This document shows positions 22,832 to 31,032 of a DNA stretch of 64,000 bases, piece after piece. Position 1 is the first letter of the stretch, and each line of letters begins with the position of its first letter. Source of the DNA: Sphingobacteriales bacterium (lineage in GTDB: Bacteria; Bacteroidota; Bacteroidia; Chitinophagales; CAIOSU01); the NCBI GenBank assembly GCA_027483645.1, contig JAIXUD010000010.1:1-64000 (forward strand). The letters run 5' to 3'. The notes beneath the pieces were generated by a model. It did not search any database and had not been told where the DNA came from. It saw only the letters and a program-made list of their open reading frames with translations. The position numbers were made by a program, and so were the translations under genes.

Positions 22832-22945
22832 AGGATTGCAGATCAAGCTGTGCTAGCACACTCCCGATGGGTTTTAACAATTGTGTGGAATGTTGTTAGG
22901 CTGTTTTACGTTATAATGGCTATATTCAAATTTTATTTTCGGGCC

Positions 22946-23179
22946 ATGACAACATTAACCGTTAAAGTAACAGACCCTAAGTTTGCAGAAATGCTGGAAA
23001 AGATGCTGCGCTCCATGGAGTTTGTGGATGCTGTGGAGGTTTCTGAAGACAATTATCAACTTACCGATGGTGAGATGATGATGTTGAAAGAACGTAGGGA
23101 AGAATATCGTAAAAACCCTAGCCAAACCCGCAGTTGGGACGAAGTTCAAAAAGAACTGAAGCAGCGATATGAGTTATAG
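22946..23179 (+). CDS. Type II antitoxin (putative addiction-module component, TIGR02574-like)
   Basis: C-terminal LTDGEMMMLKERREEYRKNPSQTRSWDEVQKELKQRY motif typical of this antitoxin family. Overlaps the toxin gene by 11 nt. Start chosen at the internal ATG. Confidence 0.6.
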   Translation: MTTLTVKVTDPKFAEMLEKMLRSMEFVDAVEVSEDNYQLTDGEMMMLKERREEYRKNPSQTRSWDEVQKELKQRYEL

Positions 23180-23465
23180 TATAAGGACCATTAGCAAGGC
23201 TGAGCAAGATATCGCCTCTGCTATTGAATGGTATCTGGAAATTAGCAAAGACTTGGCTATTCGCTTTAATCAAGAATTAGATGAGATCTTTTCTAAGCTA
23301 TTGGCTTTTCCAGAGGCTTACCCTATTGTATTCTTAGATATGCGAATGTATTTGATGAAGACTTATCCTTACAAAATTTTGTATGTGATAGATGGATCGG
23401 AAATAATTATCCATGCCGTTGTTCACTACAAGATGCACCCGAATAGTTGGCAAAGAAATAGATAA
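23169..23465 (+). CDS. Type II toxin, ParE/RelE superfamily
   Basis: 98 aa, small basic protein, with YRILY-like and IIIHAVVH segments. Gene overlap with the upstream antitoxin. Confidence 0.6.
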   Translation: MSYSIRTISKAEQDIASAIEWYLEISKDLAIRFNQELDEIFSKLLAFPEAYPIVFLDMRMYLMKTYPYKILYVIDGSEIIIHAVVHYKMHPNSWQRNR

Positions 23466-25066: not shown

Positions 25067-25117
25067 GAGACACAAGACACAACACTTTTTTTGCAGCTAT
25101 CTTGTGTCTTGTGTCTC
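25067..25117. terminator. Bidirectional hairpin between convergent genes (GACACAAGACAC repeat family)
   Basis: gagacacaagacacaa ... ttgtgtcttgtgtctc form a perfect 16-bp stem; the right arm overlaps the WYL-gene stop codon. Confidence 0.6.
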
Positions 25118-26123
25118 AACCCTGATACTGCTCCAGCGCCTTCATTAGCCGGTATTTAATAGACCGCGCCAAACGCGAAGGCTTCAACACCTTTACATTA
25201 TCACCAAAGCCCAGTATCTCGCGCTCGAGCTCAAAGTTGTGTTTTACCTGGATGCAGATGGTAGTGCCTGCTTCGGTTTTCGCTACAATTTCTTGGGTGG
25301 GGTGTATCGGTTTGGTGAGTACGTAGGGTGCATGGGCTGGATCAACAAGCAGGTGTACTTCCAGCACGTCGCTGCGGCTATCAGTTACCCCAATTAAATG
25401 CTTAAAATAGGTTTGCGTATCGAATAGCTCGTTCTCCATATAAGGCACAGAAGCTTTTTCTATCCCCTGTATACGGTCAAGCGCTAGGTTGAGCAGTTGA
25501 TTTCGGTGGTTGGGTGTGCCCAAAAGAAACCAGCGGTTGCGATACTGTTTTAATAGGTATGGGTGGAAAACAATATCGCCCGCCTGCCGCGCCTTGAAAC
25601 TTTGGTAAGTAATAGTAAGCGGTTGTTTATCGATAATAGCATGATACAGCACATCCAAGTGCTCCAACCCACGCAGGTCTTCGTTCTTTTCAAAATCGAT
25701 AACCGGTGTAGTGTGCGATTTGGAGGTATAAATCTGGTCTTCCAGCTTGCTCACCATCTCACTTACTCCGTTAAAGTGCGAAAAGCCTTTAAACTGTTTC
25801 AGTATATCCACCACACCATTCAGCATACCCAGGTCTTGGTCGGTAAGCGGTATGTTGCTTATGCTGTAATCGGGGTCTTCGTAAGTGTAATACTTCTTGT
25901 CGACTACAATAATAGGCGCTTTGTAGCCCAGCTTTTCGCTGCGCATCATCTGTATATCCATCTGCACGCTGCGGCGGCTGATGCCTTTATCAATTCCTTC
26001 GTACTCGTACAAGGTATCGCTACAGGCATCTATCAAATCCTCCAAAGTCCACTTACGGTAACGGTTTTGCAGGCATTTATCAATGGTTCGGTATCGGATG
26101 AGCGCATTCCTATTTACAGGCAT
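25116..26123 (-). CDS. WYL-domain transcriptional regulator (wHTH + WYL)
   Basis: N-terminus MPVNRNALIRYRTIDKCLQNRYRKWTLEDLIDACSD is the characteristic HTH of WYL regulators; about 335 aa. Start placed at the internal Met because the 40-aa upstream extension is non-conserved. Confidence 0.7.
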   Translation of the reverse strand: MPVNRNALIRYRTIDKCLQNRYRKWTLEDLIDACSDTLYEYEGIDKGISRRSVQMDIQMMRSEKLGYKAPIIVVDKKYYTYEDPDYSISNIPLTDQDLGMLNGVVDILKQFKGFSHFNGVSEMVSKLEDQIYTSKSHTTPVIDFEKNEDLRGLEHLDVLYHAIIDKQPLTITYQSFKARQAGDIVFHPYLLKQYRNRWFLLGTPNHRNQLLNLALDRIQGIEKASVPYMENELFDTQTYFKHLIGVTDSRSDVLEVHLLVDPAHAPYVLTKPIHPTQEIVAKTEAGTTICIQVKHNFELEREILGFGDNVKVLKPSRLARSIKYRLMKALEQYQG

Positions 26124-26159
26124 TTCAAACTTTTTTTGAAAAATAGTAAAAATATTTTT

Positions 26160-26198
26160 CACTGCGCAAAAAGACTGCGCACTAGCATGTAAACTTTG
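26160..26198 (+). promoter_or_regulatory. Operator-promoter motif copy 1 (ACTGCGCA-N6-CTGCGCA-N11-ACTTTG)
   Basis: cACTGCGCAaaaagaCTGCGCActagcatgtaaACTTTG; same architecture as copies 2 and 3. ACTTTG fits the Bacteroidetes -7 TAnnTTTG element. Confidence 0.6.
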
Positions 26199-26226
26199 CA
26201 TCGTTAATAAGAAAAAACACATCGTT

Positions 26227-26373
26227 ATGTCATCATTTATCAAACATCAGTTGGACGGTAATAAGAAGCAGCAAGGTAACTTGGGTATAGCCTATATAGG
26301 CAGCCTCGGCATGCCGGGACTGCGCCCCGACCAAAGCAGTGAGACAAAACGAGATTGTAGCCGGAAGGTATAG
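26227..26373 (+). CDS. Small ORF (48 aa) or sRNA driven by motif copy 1
   Basis: ATG 29 nt after TTTG with an A-rich leader; ORF MSSFIKHQLDGNKKQQGNLGIAYIGSLGMPGLRPDQSSETKRDCSRKV; followed by a strong terminator. Coding status is uncertain. Confidence 0.3.
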   Translation: MSSFIKHQLDGNKKQQGNLGIAYIGSLGMPGLRPDQSSETKRDCSRKV

Positions 26374-26400
26374 CATCATAATTACACCGTAGTTATATGT

Positions 26401-26434
26401 AAGCCCTGGCCATCTCGCCGGGGCTTTTCTTTTG
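26401..26434 (+). terminator. Rho-independent terminator (plus strand)
   Basis: aagccctggc-catctc-gccggggctt 10-bp stem, then ttcttttg. Confidence 0.75.
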
Positions 26435-26479
26435 CATGAGATTTTGCAATCTCAAGTCCCACACAAGTTTTATTCAACC

Positions 26480-26589
26480 GTATTCGTAGCTCAAGTGTTA
26501 GAGCCACCCACTTTTAATGGGTGAGTTATAGGTTCGAACGGCGAAGCCCTCACTGAGCTTTTTGCGAAGTAGTCCTATCGGGTACACCA
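26480..26589 (+). ncRNA. tRNA-like gene (Lys-like, anticodon TTT) with a 34-nt insertion in the T-loop and an encoded CCA
   Basis: Acceptor gtattcg/cgggtac (two G-U pairs), D-arm gctc-aagtgtta-gagc, anticodon arm accca-cttttaa-tgggt, T-stem atagg...cctat. The T-loop reads ttcgaac and is followed by the insert ggcgaagccctcactgagctttttgcgaagtagt. The 3' end is ACCA. Confidence 0.55.
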
Positions 26590-26674
26590 ATATGGGCATT
26601 GCCTTAGGGTGGGCTATGCCCAAGCTACCCGCCATCGGCTTTAGCGTGCCGATGGCGGTGGCACCAAGAATTAA

Positions 26675-26746
26675 CTGGAGGGATAACGGTGGTTGTTTAC
26701 TCGCTTTGGAAGCGAGTGGTCGCAGGTTCAAATCCTGCCCTCCAGA
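26675..26746 (+). tRNA. tRNA-Pro (anticodon TGG)
   Basis: C1-G72 acceptor ctggagg/cctccag, anticodon arm ctcgc-tttggaa-gcgag, T-arm gcagg-ttcaaat-cctgc. Confidence 0.75.
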
Positions 26747-26924
26747 CAAAAACTCCTAACCAACAAGTTGAGGAGGAAAGAGCTTGCTTGTGGCACCACT
26801 GGCGCTAGTGGTTGGTGGTGTGCAAACGGGAGTGGTTGAAGCCCACGGTTCCGACACTAAGCAGGAACAACGTTCGAAAAAGCCCATTTGACGGCCAACG
26901 GGCAAGCTCTTTCAAAGCATAACA

Positions 26925-26996
26925 GGAACCGTAGTTCAGCGGTAGAATCCCCGACTGTCTATCGGGTGGTCACGGGTTCGAATCCCGTCGGTTCCG
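26925..26996 (+). tRNA. tRNA-Asp (anticodon GTC)
   Basis: ggaaccg/cggttcc acceptor, anticodon arm cccga-ctgtcta-tcggg, T-arm acggg-ttcgaat-cccgt. Confidence 0.85.
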
Positions 26997-27000
26997 CTTT

Positions 27001-27096
27001 AGGCCTGTAGCCCAACGGCAGAGGCACCAGATTTAGGATCTGGACAGTGTGGGTTCGAACGGCGAAGCCCTCGTGCCAACACTCCCACCAGGCCCA
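27001..27096 (+). ncRNA. tRNA-like gene (anticodon TAG, class-I shape) with a 23-nt T-loop insertion
   Basis: Acceptor aggcctg/caggccc, anticodon arm ccaga-tttagga-tctgg, 5-nt variable loop, T-stem gtggg...cccac. The T-loop ttcgaac is followed by the insert ggcgaagccctcgtgccaacact, sharing its first 12 nt with the 26480 element. Confidence 0.55.
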
Positions 27097-27104
27097 CAAA
27101 TTAT

Positions 27105-27177
27105 TGGATGGTAGTTCAATTGGAAAGAGCATCGGGCTACGAACCCGAAGATGCAGGTTCGACTCCTGCCCATCCAA
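27105..27177 (+). tRNA. tRNA-Arg (anticodon ACG)
   Basis: Acceptor tggatgg/ccatcca, D-arm gttc-aattggaaa-gagc, anticodon arm tcggg-ctacgaa-cccga, T-arm gcagg-ttcgact-cctgc. Confidence 0.8.
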
Positions 27178-27188
27178 CTAACAAAAAG

Positions 27189-27403
27189 GGCGTCATTGCG
27201 AAGGCCTACTAGGTCTTGCAGTTCGAGCTAAACTTTAATGGCCTGAAGCAATCCCCCGACGAGGGGAGTGAATCGCATAGACCACTAAAGTGATGGTATT
27301 ATGTACTTGGTTCTGCGGTAAGCACAAACTATGCTCCGTAGCAGGGGATTGCTTCGTCGTTCAATTGCGCGAAAGGCGCAAATTGACTCCTCGCAATGAC
27401 GGC
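27189..27403 (+). ncRNA. Unclassified highly structured RNA candidate (about 215 nt) embedded in the tRNA array
   Basis: Closing helix gcgtcattgcgaagg / cctcgcaatgacggc. Nested helices gaagcaatcccc / ggggattgcttc and gcatag / ctatgc. Hairpins tcccccgacgagggga and ttgcgc-gaaag-gcgcaa. Confidence 0.45.
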
Positions 27404-27427
27404 TAGGGATTGGAGGTGATGTTAAAT

Positions 27428-27499
27428 TGTCTGGTGGTCTAATGGTTAGGATACTTCGTTTTGGAAGAAGTGGTGGTGGTTCGAATCCATCCCGGACAA
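27428..27499 (+). tRNA. tRNA-Gln (anticodon TTG)
   Basis: U1-A72 acceptor tgtctgg/ccggaca, anticodon loop ttTTGga, T-arm ggtgg-ttcgaat-ccatc, 4-nt variable loop. Confidence 0.7.
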
Positions 27500-27539
27500 C
27501 AAAAAATGAAAAAGTTGAAAATAAATTTTACTGCGCAAC

Positions 27540-27577
27540 AACGCTGCGCACCAGCGTTTCAACTTTGACATATTGTT
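27540..27577 (+). promoter_or_regulatory. Operator-promoter motif copy 2
   Basis: tACTGCGCAacaacgCTGCGCAccagcgtttcaACTTTG; spacing identical to copies 1 and 3. Confidence 0.6.
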
Positions 27578-27590
27578 ATTTGAAATCAAT

Positions 27591-27790
27591 ACTCCTCTAG
27601 CTTAAAAGGAAGAGCTGTGGTAAAAGTTACGGAACCATGTAGTGCCGGGATGATGCCTATAGAATCTCGCATTTTATAGGCTAGAATTTGCAGATGCACC
27701 GAAACACCGCTCTATAGAAGTGTAGTAGGGAAGCGCATTTATAGCCCGGCTGCCCTCGCGGGAGTCTCGGTTCGAGTCCGGGGAGGAGTG
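27591..27790 (+). ncRNA. 200-nt tRNA-like RNA with acceptor stem and canonical T-arm but about 150 nt replacing the anticodon region
   Basis: 5' actcctc pairs with 3' gaggagt. T-arm ctcgg-ttcgagt-ccggg sits directly before the 3' acceptor strand, and an agct...agct D-like stem follows the 5' strand. Internal helices include gcctata/tataggc and gccggg/cccggc. Begins about 15 nt after motif copy 2. Confidence 0.45.
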
Positions 27791-27796
27791 CGATTA

Positions 27797-27867
27797 GCAC
27801 CAGTAGCTTAATGGCAAAGCCCCTGTTTACCAAACAGGCAACGCAGGTTCGATTCCTGCTTGGTGCT
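27797..27867 (+). tRNA. tRNA with atypical anticodon ACC (Gly-like), 4-nt variable loop
   Basis: Acceptor gcaccag/ttggtgc, D-arm gctt-aatggca-aagc, anticodon arm cctgt-ttACCaa-acagg, T-arm gcagg-ttcgatt-cctgc. An A34 anticodon is unusual in bacteria outside Arg. Confidence 0.55.
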
Positions 27868-28005
27868 CAGTTAATGGTCGATTTGTGTAAGACCTGATCA
27901 GGGTTTCAAAATGGCCCGGTAGTGTTGCCACGCCCTGCGTTGCAATATGCTGCTTATCATTTTGGCATTAACTACCATGCTGTTTTTTGAAACAGTTTTG
28001 GAAGC

Positions 28006-28082
28006 GTGGGTTCGAATCCCACCATGCGTACACGCATGTGGCTCAGTGGTTAGAGCATGTTTTGGGCTCATAATCCAAACAT
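28006..28082 (+). ncRNA. Permuted-looking Met-like tRNA element: 3' half (T-arm + acceptor 3' strand) immediately upstream of the 5' half (acceptor 5' strand, D-arm, CAT anticodon arm)
   Basis: The 3' half gtggg-ttcgaat-cccac-catgcgt-a is followed 1 nt later by the 5' half acgcatg-tg-gctc-agtggtta-gagc. The anticodon stem is extended (atgttt/aaacat plus ggg/tcc) with loop CTCATAA, the Met/initiator-type loop. The two acceptor strands are exact complements. Confidence 0.4.
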
Positions 28083-28470
28083 TTCCCAAAAGTTGATCAC
28101 TTGTAAAAATGATCGCAGGAAAGTAGCGGCGGTGTCCTGGCCTTGCCATTATGGTTCGCCATAAAACCCAGGCAGTTGGACAGCGACCTGAAAAAGGAGG
28201 ATACCGTTGCAACAAGTTCGTTGGCTTTGCCCGGTAAAGGGATTTCTATAAATCGAGTATCAAAAGGGCCTCGAATTAACGAAACACCCACTGTGCAAAC
28301 CCGGCAAACACGTTCAGCTCAATCCGGCTTCCATTGTTGGAAGATGGGGCATCGGCGCTGCTTTCTATTTTTTTTGAAACGTATTTGAAAACCCGAAACG
28401 TGTAAGTCCCTCTCCCCTTGGGAGAGGCTAGGTGAGGGTTGAATTATAACAAGCATTAAAACACACAATT

Positions 28471-29574
28471 ATGTTCAACACAAGAATCAACGAAGGAACA
28501 GTAGGTATCGTTACCAAGTACGGCAACTATAACAGGATAGTATCGGCAGGTACTTTCTGGGCAATGTTCAATGAGCAGGTGGAAACCTACAACGTGGATA
28601 CGCTGTATGGCGCTTTCCCTAAGCTCGACATTATGCTGAAAGACGAGCGTTTCCGCGCCATGGTAGAAGTACTGGAAGTAAAGGATAACGAGATTGCCTT
28701 GCAGTTTGTAAACGGCAACTTTGTGAGCATACTGAAGCCAGGTCGGTACTTCTACTTTAAAGGCTACGCCAACATCAAGTTTGTGGTGGTAAACCTGGGC
28801 AAGGTAGAGATTACCGAAGGCATCGATATGGCGGTACTGTTAAGGTCGGAGGTGGCGCACTATATCCGCGCCTTCTCGGTGCTGCCTTACGAGGAAGGCC
28901 TGCTGTTTGTGGATGGTAAATTCCAAAGGAAGCTGACCAAGGGTACCTACTACTTCTGGAAGAACCCCATCACCATTGAGGTGTTGAAGGCGGATATGAG
29001 GCAGTTGCAAATGGAAATCTCCGGTCAGGAAATCTTGACCATGGATAAAGCCGCACTGCGTGTAAACTTCTATGCCCAATACCGAGTGGTGGATACCGAA
29101 GTGGCCTTGCTGAACAACAAAGACTTCGAGAAGCAATTGTACATACTGGTGCAGTTGGCCTTGAGGGAATTTGTGGGCACCAAAACCCTGGATGAGTTGC
29201 TGGAAAACAAAGACTCCGTGGGCCAGTTTGTAGCCGATGCGCTGAAAGGCAAAGCGGCCAAGCTGGGCGTAGAGATTGTGAACAGCGGCATCAGGGACGT
29301 GATACTGCCAGGTGAAGTGAAGGAGATTATGAACCAAGTATTGGTGGCCCAAAAACAGGCCCAGGCCAACACCATTACCCGTAGGGAGGAGACAGCTTCT
29401 ACTAGGAGCTTGTTGAACACCGCCAAACTGATGGAGGACAACGAAATGTTGTTCAAACTGAAGGAGATGGAGTACGTGGAGAAAATCGCTGCGAAAATAG
29501 GTGAGATTACCGTATCGGGCAATGGCCAGGTGTTGGACCAGTTGAGGGACATTTTTTCGGCGAAATCAAAATAA
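28471..29574 (+). CDS. SPFH/Band-7 (stomatin-prohibitin-like) domain protein
   Basis: 367 aa with an SPFH-like core and a C-terminal coiled region; the family call is from overall resemblance. Confidence 0.6.
   Translation: MFNTRINEGTVGIVTKYGNYNRIVSAGTFWAMFNEQVETYNVDTLYGAFPKLDIMLKDERFRAMVEVLEVKDNEIALQFVNGNFVSILKPGRYFYFKGYANIKFVVVNLGKVEITEGIDMAVLLRSEVAHYIRAFSVLPYEEGLLFVDGKFQRKLTKGTYYFWKNPITIEVLKADMRQLQMEISGQEILTMDKAALRVNFYAQYRVVDTEVALLNNKDFEKQLYILVQLALREFVGTKTLDELLENKDSVGQFVADALKGKAAKLGVEIVNSGIRDVILPGEVKEIMNQVLVAQKQAQANTITRREETASTRSLLNTAKLMEDNEMLFKLKEMEYVEKIAAKIGEITVSGNGQVLDQLRDIFSAKSK

Positions 29575-29643: not shown

Positions 29644-31032
<1,389 letters not shown>

Follow-up and report, generated by a model that had tools for sequence, protein, structure and literature searches.

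Structured cassettes in the T-loops of two tRNA genes of a Sphingobacteriales tRNA array and their kinship with RtT repeats

Two interrupted tRNA genes in a tRNA array

The DNA analysed here (the window) comprises 64,000 nucleotides, positions 1 to 64,000 of contig JAIXUD010000010.1 from the Sphingobacteriales bacterium assembly GCA_027483645.1. A 2-kb non-coding stretch of the window holds a tRNA array. As assigned with Pfam, it is flanked on one side by a divergent regulator with WYL and WCX domains (25116..26126, − strand) and on the other by an SPFH/Band 7 protein (28471..29574, + strand; Band_7, 2e-32), whose named homologues are slipins, and by an RtcB RNA ligase (29650..31032, + strand; RtcB, 3.2e-34). 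The named slipin homologues and the genomes that bear the cassette likewise mark the window as part of a Bacteroidota chromosome. Two members of the array, both on the + strand, have an interrupted T-loop. Element 1 (26480..26589) is a tRNA-Lys(UUU) with an encoded ACCA end, already recognised in the initial annotation and also encoded by the uninterrupted orthologue. Element 2 (27001..27096) is a Leu-type class-I tRNA with the anticodon UAG and A1.C72. Each is the sole copy of its tRNA type in the array. With the insert ignored, both form a complete cloverleaf with acceptor, D, anticodon and T stems and a 7-nt anticodon loop, which bears out the initial description of two complete tRNA-like genes.

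Neither element was called in the genomic sequence by ARAGORN or by Rfam at the gathering score. The Rfam tRNA model (RF00005, gathering score 29) gave partial, sub-threshold matches of 19.5 bits at 26480-26549 and 22.9 bits at 27008-27072. Once the 34 nt after TTCGA were deleted in silico, ARAGORN called tRNA-Lys(ttt) in element 1, and in element 2 it called tRNA-Leu(tag) after deletions of 21-25 nt, including that of the 23 nt after TTCGA. The cloverleaf was the minimum free energy (MFE) fold of both insert-deleted sequences. The intact element 1 likewise had a cloverleaf as its MFE fold, its T-loop being enlarged.

Alignment with uninterrupted orthologues (A1, A2) gave native T-loops of TTCGA|GT for element 1 and TTCGA|CT for element 2, and confirmed that both genes are interrupted at one T-loop position. 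Cassette 1 (ACGGCGAAGCCCTCACTGAGCTTTTTGCGAAGTA) occupies 26538-26571 and cassette 2 (ACGGCGAAGCCCTCGTGCCAACA) occupies 27059-27081; their lengths, 34 and 23 nt, had been given correctly from the start. The junction lies after T-loop A58, where an A/A ambiguity allows 58|59 or 57|58. In the initial annotation the inserts followed TTCGAAC and shared 12 nt. The interruption and the sharing were upheld, with the boundary shifted by 2 nt and the common start lengthened to 14 nt (ACGGCGAAGCCCTC), or to 21 nt when the preceding GGTTCGA is included. The shared 17-mer occurred twice in the window, compared to 0.17 expected (scan tolerating up to 3 mismatches), and the palindrome GTTCGAAC arises from the insert itself. 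A Logan contig from independent read sets (L083; 7607 nt, 3 samples) was identical over 7.6 kb, with 100% identity across the whole array; thus, the inserts are not an artefact of one assembly. In the search for relatives, an exact match to the WYL protein was absent from the records, and the contig with the closest slipin variant (L078) did not extend to either element.

Ordinary tRNA-Lys(ttt) and tRNA-Leu(tag) genes occupy the homologous array positions in L004 and L005, whose slipins are 87% and 74% identical to that of the window. Cassette 1 was absent from the orthologues in L004, L005 and L003, and cassette 2 from those in L004 and L005. We found no other T-loop-interrupted tRNA in six related arrays; one ARAGORN candidate, in L079, was an Ala-like gene with a broken acceptor stem and no insert. 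Since the homologous genes of the relatives are uninterrupted, the comparison indicates that the inserts are a recent gain in this lineage.

Without its insert, element 1 was identical to the L004 tRNA-Lys at 73 of 76 positions, whereas the neighbouring tRNAs and spacers were only 82-93% identical to L004. All three differences fall within the 8-nt D-loop (26493..26500, + strand), in which AAUUGGAA has been changed to AAGUGUUA with removal of the universal G18G19, which in tRNAs pair with T-loop positions 55 and 56. The D-loop at this site reads AAUUGGNA in the orthologues, and UUGG is kept in four homologues. By our own calculation, three random changes among 76 positions would all hit the D-loop with a probability of ~ 0.001, and their confinement to this loop makes a pattern unlike random decay. 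Element 2 keeps the D-loop GG and, with the insert removed, was identical to its L004 orthologue at 67 of 72 positions. Its T-stem carries a compensatory pair, U-A instead of the C-G found in L004 and L005. It also has G57, compared to A57 in both relatives, which suggests that TTCGA either entered with the cassette or is required for insertion. We also observed two complementarities that could be due to chance: AGUG of the derived D-loop of element 1 (26493-26500) with CACU in its own cassette (26549-26556, CUCACUGA), and AGUGU of the variable loop and T-stem of element 2 with ACACU at its cassette end.

Cassette architecture, distribution and the link to RtT

Both cassettes have the same layout, namely AC, a GGC-GAA-GCC mini-hairpin, CUC, a second hairpin (P3) and a terminal A. 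In cassette 1 the mini-hairpin spans 26540-26548, CUC 26549-26551 and P3 26552-26570 (ACUGAGC-UUUUU-GCGAAGU). This P3 is the full form (ACU-GA-GC / GC-GA-AGU) and fits the family pattern of Watson-Crick pairs followed by tandem G.A. In cassette 2 the mini-hairpin lies at 27061-27069 and, after CUC, a minimal P3 occupies 27073-27080 (GU-GCCA-AC). Minimal P3 hairpins, in which two base pairs close a GNA or GNNA loop, were also present as AUGUAAUA in L009, L019 and L050 and as GUGAAACA in L039, so the P3 of element 2 is best seen as a natural minimal form and not as a decayed one. The two P3 subtypes differ, with ACNGA...GARGU in cassette 1 and GUG...AAC in cassette 2.

Across the family, P3 opens with two Watson-Crick pairs (pair 1 A-U or G-C, pair 2 C-G or U-A); tandem sheared G.A / A.G comes next in most copies. 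The 51 copies that could be parsed had 39 distinct stems, with loops of 2-74 nt. The long loops contained no protein gene and were A/U-rich hairpins closing within ~ 100 nt. In a MAFFT alignment of 31 non-window copies, pair 1 was A-U in 28 and G-C in three, pair 2 was U-A in 16 and C-G in 15, and there were zero unpaired cells. The covariation score was 0.314, compared to 0.124 in shuffles (reached in 0 of 500) and ≤ 0.107 in slid controls. P3 is a genuine hairpin. A covariance model (R1), built without the window sequences and run in a search space of 144 kb, matched both elements over the full length of the model, with 40.3 bits (E 1.7e-7) for element 1 and 43.6 bits (E 3.1e-8) for element 2. 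R1 gave no further match in the window or in the related arrays.

A search of other genomes for the shared start had been proposed with the initial annotation, and we scanned one genome per species, plus metagenomes and viral contigs, for the 20-mer GTTCRAACGGCGAAGCCCTC. The 20-mer (GTTCGAACGGCGAAGCCCTC) was present at 38 loci in genomes and 32 in metagenomes. Nearly all of those with a name belonged to Bacteroidota, with genome loci in Bacteroidales, Salinivirgaceae, Cryomorphaceae, Flavobacteriales, Sphingobacteriales and Chitinophaga, and several loci held two or three copies. Four (L016, L049, L051 and L072) had the 20-mer without the surrounding context and look like chance matches. A phage origin was considered and rejected, with 0 matches to the 20-mer in viral contigs and only ordinary tRNA matches in a phage BLAST search.

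Throughout Bacteroidota, ~ 60 distinct tRNA-linked 3′ fragments carried the cassette at an identical T-loop position and in a fixed order: ..GG-UUCGA; AC, GGC-GAA-GCC, CUC; P3; A; then AU-CC... with the T-stem and acceptor 3′ strands of a tRNA. At 39 family loci a same-strand tRNA lay upstream within 700 nt, at a distance of 59-559 nt that was mostly below 110 nt, and its 3′-terminal 17 nt were usually copied exactly after the cassette. Of these upstream tRNAs, 29 were Ser, 5 Cys, 3 Pro and 2 Arg. The two window elements were the only ones among 83 matches to yield a complete tRNA upon removal of the cassette. Copies without a leader vary in extent: L019 and L050 hold, downstream of an intact tRNA-Arg, a tRNA-Arg copy that lacks ~ 19 nt at the 5′ end only, and the L039 copy is a short fragment that starts at the variable arm. 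In the latter locus (L039:1-460), a GIY-YIG-like small open reading frame (ORF) ends ~ 40 nt before this fragment, which consists of the variable arm, the interrupted T-arm and the acceptor 3′ strand.

Homologues of RtcB, slipin and the WYL protein were absent from all 71 other cassette loci, and no transposase, integrase, TnpB or reverse transcriptase was found near the cassette loci. No such gene occurred among the ORFs within 2.5 kb of seven copies that lack the closing P3 or a tRNA-type tail, nor among 310 neighbouring proteins from 66 loci, whose all-against-all clustering revealed no recurrent family beyond tRNA-Ser synteny.

The closest catalogued counterpart is RtT (Rfam RF00391), a repeat of the tyrT-tyrV operon known in E. 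coli for decades. In the tyrV-rttR region of E. coli, each 178-bp repeat opens with the leader GGGGAAGGAUGAGAAGC, followed by a copy of tRNA-Tyr from the variable arm to ..AAGGUUCGA. The insert starts with CUCGAGCGC and ends with GCGCUGAGUA, and then come AUCCUUCCCCCACCACCA and the remaining tRNA-Tyr T-loop and 3′ end. With ..AAGGTTCGA, an insert ending in GAGTA and then ATCCTTCCCCCACCACCA, the E. coli RtT has the layout of the Bacteroidota copies. The comparison identifies RtT as a tRNA 3′ fragment interrupted after A58, and in consequence the window insert has an already catalogued relative. The annotated 171-nt RttR sRNA covers the insert and ends at CCA, which provides a precedent for a stable RNA that keeps the insert. 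The Rfam RtT model aligned over its full length with five Bacteroidota copies, at 23-29 bits compared to a gathering score of 45 and 134-137 bits for the E. coli controls. In the window, the same model had no match in 26300-28100 even at E up to 10. More broadly, Rfam searches of the window region and of a typical family member, at the gathering score and at E up to 10, returned only tRNA, sub-threshold RtT and YrlA. Judged by shared layout and full-length alignment, the Bacteroidota copies are distant relatives of E. coli RtT/RttR.

A 5′ leader (GGAUGAGAAC) pairing with the T-stem/acceptor 3′ strand is found in many RtT-type elements. In the leader-bearing Bacteroidota copies the leader co-varies with this strand (16 distinct versions, up to 13 bp), which argues that the cassette-bearing RNAs are under selection. 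Both window elements have a normal tRNA 5′ half instead of the leader GGAUGAGAA(C/G), and a regex scan of the window gave no convincing match to the leader motif. The GAGAAC or UCGAAC of the leader may pair with GUUCGA or may make a second T-loop; the data fit both. We also noted that the E. coli leader GGAUGAGAAGC is identical at 10 of 11 positions to part of a tRNA-Arg(ACG) from Sphingobacteriales, namely the 3′ strand of its anticodon stem together with the variable loop (ACGGAUGAGAAGGUU), for which the comparison loci were L019:3990-4215, L050:885-1040 and L045:1290-1310, with the cassette on truncated downstream copies. The leaders may descend from a tRNA 3′ half, or the resemblance may have arisen by chance. 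In addition, the Rfam model of the Xanthomonas sRNA sX4 (RF02223) partly aligned to a tRNA-Ser and the RtT-like leader that follows it (L017:2642-2813, L057:2075-2249, L053:243-424), and sX4 may be the same kind of tRNA-linked element in Proteobacteria.

These comparisons point to the insert as a conserved T-loop-specific cassette, and not to decayed tRNA copies with random fill-in, the outcome that would have undermined the initial annotation. Of the three identities which that annotation had offered, a T-loop-targeting insertion element fits best, since copies or fragments of Ser, Cys, Pro and Arg tRNAs carry this cassette at one and the same T-loop site and an E. coli Tyr fragment has a related insert there. 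For the second, a tRNA-like decoy, the evidence neither supports nor opposes the idea.

The rest of the array and its flanks

Five other tRNAs, called by both ARAGORN and Rfam, lie on the + strand within 26675..27868: tRNA-Pro(UGG) at 26675-26747, tRNA-Asp(GUC) at 26925-26997, tRNA-Arg(ACG) at 27105-27178, tRNA-Gln(UUG) at 27428-27500 and tRNA-Gly(ACC) at 27797-27868. The array ends with a YrlA-like (Y RNA-like) tRNA mimic on the same strand (27890..28150, approximate boundaries), to which the Rfam YrlA model matched partially at 28005-28056 (33.7 bits, gathering score 69). Its core (28005-28085) runs from a T-arm (GUGGGUUCGAAUCCCAC) through a closed hairpin and a D-arm to a CAU anticodon-like arm. 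The RNA is kept in L004 (1360-1530) and L079 (3520-3720). Relatives contain two permuted YrlA-like modules in tandem and a conserved GAUCACUUGUAAAAAUGAUC. The YrlA model (RF02553) also matched weakly at 26944-27060 (22.2 bits), spanning the tRNA-Asp T-arm and the element 2 D-arm. Neither interrupted element shows the order that marks YrlA, a permuted T-arm, closed stem and D-arm with a Ro-binding stem, and the genuine YrlA-like region is that at 28005-28056.

Several array tRNAs (26675-27868; also L004:734-807) are unusual, namely the Gly with the anticodon ACC, the Pro with a poor D-arm and the class-I UAG tRNA with its short variable loop and A1.C72 mismatch. Across the arrays the anticodons include Lys, Gln, Asp, Asn, His and Arg, a set that may be similar to the one cut by known anticodon nucleases. 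Related arrays also hold a Gly-like tRNA with the anticodon region swapped for a longer sequence (L004:1165-1260) and an Ala(UGC)-like tRNA with unpaired acceptor strands (L079:2500-2576).

No + strand terminator was found inside the array, and the only + strand site in 26100-28600 that resembles one is at 26401-26426, shortly before element 1. Because no such terminator lies within it, the array may be one transcript that reaches slipin-RtcB, in which case the array and both genes may form one transcription unit. The strong terminator at 26401-26426 ends a ~ 170-nt stretch before the array (26260-26430), the equivalent of which in L079 (2300-2480) has a short ORF and then a terminator; this stretch could serve the array as a leader or attenuator. 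Between element 1 and tRNA-Pro, the spacer (26591-26662) forms two very stable hairpins (-48.8 kcal/mol, z = -5.5) and is 82% conserved with L004, with substitutions that preserve pairing.

The order of WYL regulator, tRNA array with YrlA-like RNA, and slipin was found again in L003, L005, L079, L081 and L082, with the regulator in the same position. RtcB follows downstream in L003, L005, L079 and L082 and not in L081, and the L004 contig has neither WYL nor RtcB. In L003 (4770-8662), the closest slipin relative (88%), slipin and RtcB are separated by genes for a PRTase-CE protein and an RVT_1 reverse transcriptase, with a 104-aa ORF between these two. In L082 (6345-8161) two RlaP nucleotidyltransferase genes come after RtcB. 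At 22850-23465 of the window, 3 kb away from the array, a ParE-type toxin gene (23169-23465) preceded by a putative antitoxin sits between a peptidase S15 gene and an AAA_5 ATPase gene.

Fate of the cassette and comparison with known systems

The alignments place the cassette directly after A58 in each T-loop and identify it as the one that interrupts RtT-type tRNA-linked repeats. The best reading of this arrangement, to which we give an evenly balanced confidence, is that of two accessory tRNA genes whose cassette would be retained in the RNA and form an additional arm at the tRNA elbow. The cassette would have been copied from RtT-type repeats, either through recombination or gene conversion at short homologies, with GGTTCGA as the left and TCC as the right one, or by a site-specific process. 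The conservative account is gene conversion at short homologies, with RtT-like donors located elsewhere in the genome; a dedicated mechanism targeting TTCGA is conceivable. Since the P3 subtypes differ and the relatives lack both cassettes, two separate acquisitions in this lineage would be the simplest history. The T-loop motif allows the chain to depart behind position 5 (A58) with the U54-A58 pair and G53-C61 unbroken, and an arm at this point would project from the elbow. The cassette, kept in the transcript, would thus exit the T-loop after U54-A58 as a two-hairpin arm, leaving the acceptor and anticodon arms intact and the elbow remodelled. Expression would be shared with the array, and the RNAs would serve as accessory tRNAs or tRNA mimics linked to stress, and not as housekeeping decoders. 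On the side of retention stand the T-stem of element 2, preserved through a compensatory change, the confinement of the element 1 substitutions to the D-loop, the absence of RtcB from the other cassette loci, the lack of a + strand terminator within the array and the precedent of RttR.

Several points weigh against retention as an elbow arm. The tolerance for a break at 58|59 comes from general knowledge of the T-loop motif and not from a model of this RNA. Elsewhere the cassette occurs only in truncated tRNA copies, which are possibly non-functional, and the other degenerate tRNA-like genes in related arrays imply that defective members are tolerated. In the predicted MFE fold of element 2 (-37.4 kcal/mol), the cassette is paired to the 5′ half of the T-arm, and this fold is more favourable by 11 kcal/mol than the cloverleaf plus cassette (-26.1). 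The D-loop and T-stem substitutions may precede or follow the insertion, and a donor copy was absent from the 64-kb window.

The same observations would suit an account without RNA function, in which selfish or accidental spread of the cassette disabled two dispensable tRNA genes that have not yet decayed. We regard this as a serious rival, though as the less probable reading. It agrees with the recent gain, as relatives at 87% and 74% slipin identity have no cassette, with the occurrence of all other copies in truncated fragments beside an intact tRNA, with the tolerance of arrays for defects (the Ala-like gene of L079 and the Gly-like gene of L004), and with the alternative fold that disrupts the T-arm of element 2. 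However, element 1 is unchanged apart from the insert and three D-loop substitutions, while its neighbours have diverged by 7-18%, and element 2 has compensated its T-stem. Moreover, both cassettes retain every family-conserved feature, and in RtT-like copies with a leader the co-variation between this leader and the tRNA 3′ strand, which extends over up to 13 bp, argues for selection on cassette-bearing RNAs.

We find it unlikely that the cassette acts at the DNA level, as a recognition site (folded single-stranded DNA or duplex) of a trans-acting transposase or recombinase that targets TTCGA, with the RNA irrelevant. Such an element would be miniature and non-autonomous. In favour of it, the cassette ends are conserved and the interior is highly variable, with P3 loops of 2-74 nt. 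In each of five different tRNA species the cassette directly follows TTCGA on the 3′ side, without exception, and G57 of element 2 would fit a TTCGA target requirement. GCGAAGC is also an exceptionally stable mini-hairpin in DNA. Nevertheless, no mobility gene of the kinds sought was found near any cassette locus and no protein family recurs there beyond local synteny. The window has two copies only, both in tRNA genes, unlike REP or MITE families. No terminal inverted repeats span both ends, every copy lies on the tRNA sense strand, and the E. coli RtT is an expressed RNA.

Excision as a T-loop intron, with the exons joined by the adjacent RtcB to give a normal tRNA-Lys and a UAG tRNA, is in our estimation very improbable. 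The initial annotation had raised a connection with this ligase, which is encoded ~ 2.6-3.1 kb downstream, possibly in the same transcription unit, and removal of the cassettes in silico restores canonical cloverleaves. The proposed link was not sustained: RtcB, slipin and WYL were missing from all 71 other loci (RtcB at 0 of 71), and inspection of sequence and folds revealed no bulge-helix-bulge motif, i.e. no 3-nt bulges flanking a 4-bp helix at the junctions, which are 5 nt and 2 nt away from the T-stem. The locus has no evident gene for a splicing endonuclease or other nuclease, and no known self-cleaving ribozyme family matched even at E up to 10. Furthermore, element 1 lacks G18G19, which a spliced canonical tRNA needs and should have kept, and E. 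coli RttR keeps its insert. RtcB-dependent splicing is unlikely. Chance resemblance, an assembly artefact or decayed tRNAs with random fill-in, which would agree only with the failure of standard tRNA finders to call the elements, can practically be dismissed given the exact 21-nt shared stretch, the excess of the 17-mer, the ~ 60 other distinct sequences, the identical independent assembly and covariance-model E values of about 1e-7 to 1e-8.

Beyond retention as an elbow arm, we can only tentatively propose, and think it rather improbable, that the RtT cassette is a T-loop-specific, horizontally spreading RNA module able to enter complete tRNAs, yielding purposely made elbow-remodelled tRNAs in RtcB/slipin stress operons. 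These could be, e.g., nuclease-resistant spares or decoys for tRNA-targeting toxins, and the RtT repeats of E. coli and many bacteria would then be the same device on tRNA 3′ fragments. If the cassette-bearing tRNAs are functional, they would represent a new, engineered-elbow kind of tRNA in an RNA-repair context; if they are dead, they would be evidence for a T-loop-specific insertion process. Two questions become accessible to direct tests, namely what role the cassette has at the tRNA elbow and how a cassette of 23-36 nt is placed so precisely.

To our knowledge, no bacterial tRNA with a structured T-loop insertion has been described. A literature search on RtT, T-loop insertions or introns, and RtcB/WYL/slipin arrays found no such tRNA and nothing describing this cassette. 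Bacterial group I introns are likewise intervening sequences in bacterial tRNA genes; however, they are self-splicing ribozymes of hundreds of nt located in the anticodon loop, whereas the cassette has 23-34 nt, lies in the T-loop and has no catalytic core. Archaeal non-canonical tRNA introns (bulge-helix-bulge, EndA, RtcB), some of which occur in the T-loop region, resemble our elements in the short T-loop intervening sequence and the RtcB gene nearby. They differ in that the host here is bacterial, no bulge-helix-bulge and, at the locus, no EndA are evident, the cassette family is unlinked to RtcB, and the D-loop change of element 1 argues that the insert is kept. The YrlA mimics of rsr-yrlBA-rtcBA type operons are non-canonical tRNA-like RNAs beside RtcB, and a YrlA-like RNA ends the array of the window. 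In terms of architecture, YrlA is permuted (T-arm, closed stem, D-arm) with a normal 7-nt T-loop, whereas the window elements are ordinary cloverleaves with an expanded T-loop.

A similar gene set has been reported for Anabaena. According to excerpts of the two reports (PMC8421152, PMC10272220), a silent tRNA array (the trn operon), rtcB and a slipin gene are de-repressed together under translational stress, co-regulated by TrcR, and some members of the operon are non-functional. These excerpts describe, as here, extra tRNA genes, RtcB and slipin under a dedicated regulator, and mention no T-loop inserts in the cyanobacterial arrays; in comparison, the components in the window are physically linked and the regulator is a WYL protein.

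The RtT-type elements are the most closely related to ours. Both have a structured insert at one T-loop position, after TTCGA (A58), beyond which the T-loop is completed and the 3′ strands of T-stem and acceptor follow. Both also have CUC and then a hairpin closed by C-G and tandem G.A and ending in ...GAGUA, and the RtT-type copies of Bacteroidota share a 20-mer (GUUCGAACGGCGAAGCCCUC) identical to that of the window. The E. coli RtT is without the GGC-GAA-GCC mini-hairpin. RtT-type elements are 3′ fragments without the acceptor 5′ strand and usually without the D and anticodon arms, and they adjoin an intact upstream tRNA of the same kind, often in tandem, whereas the window elements are leaderless and have no such neighbour. 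The window elements therefore carry an RtT-type cassette in a full-length tRNA and are RtT members neither by Rfam score nor by architecture. Their comparison gives RtT/RttR a clear anatomy, that of tRNA 3′ fragments with a T-loop interrupted after A58 by a conserved cassette, with relatives widespread in Bacteroidota, and it indicates that a full-length bacterial tRNA gene can carry a structured T-loop insertion.

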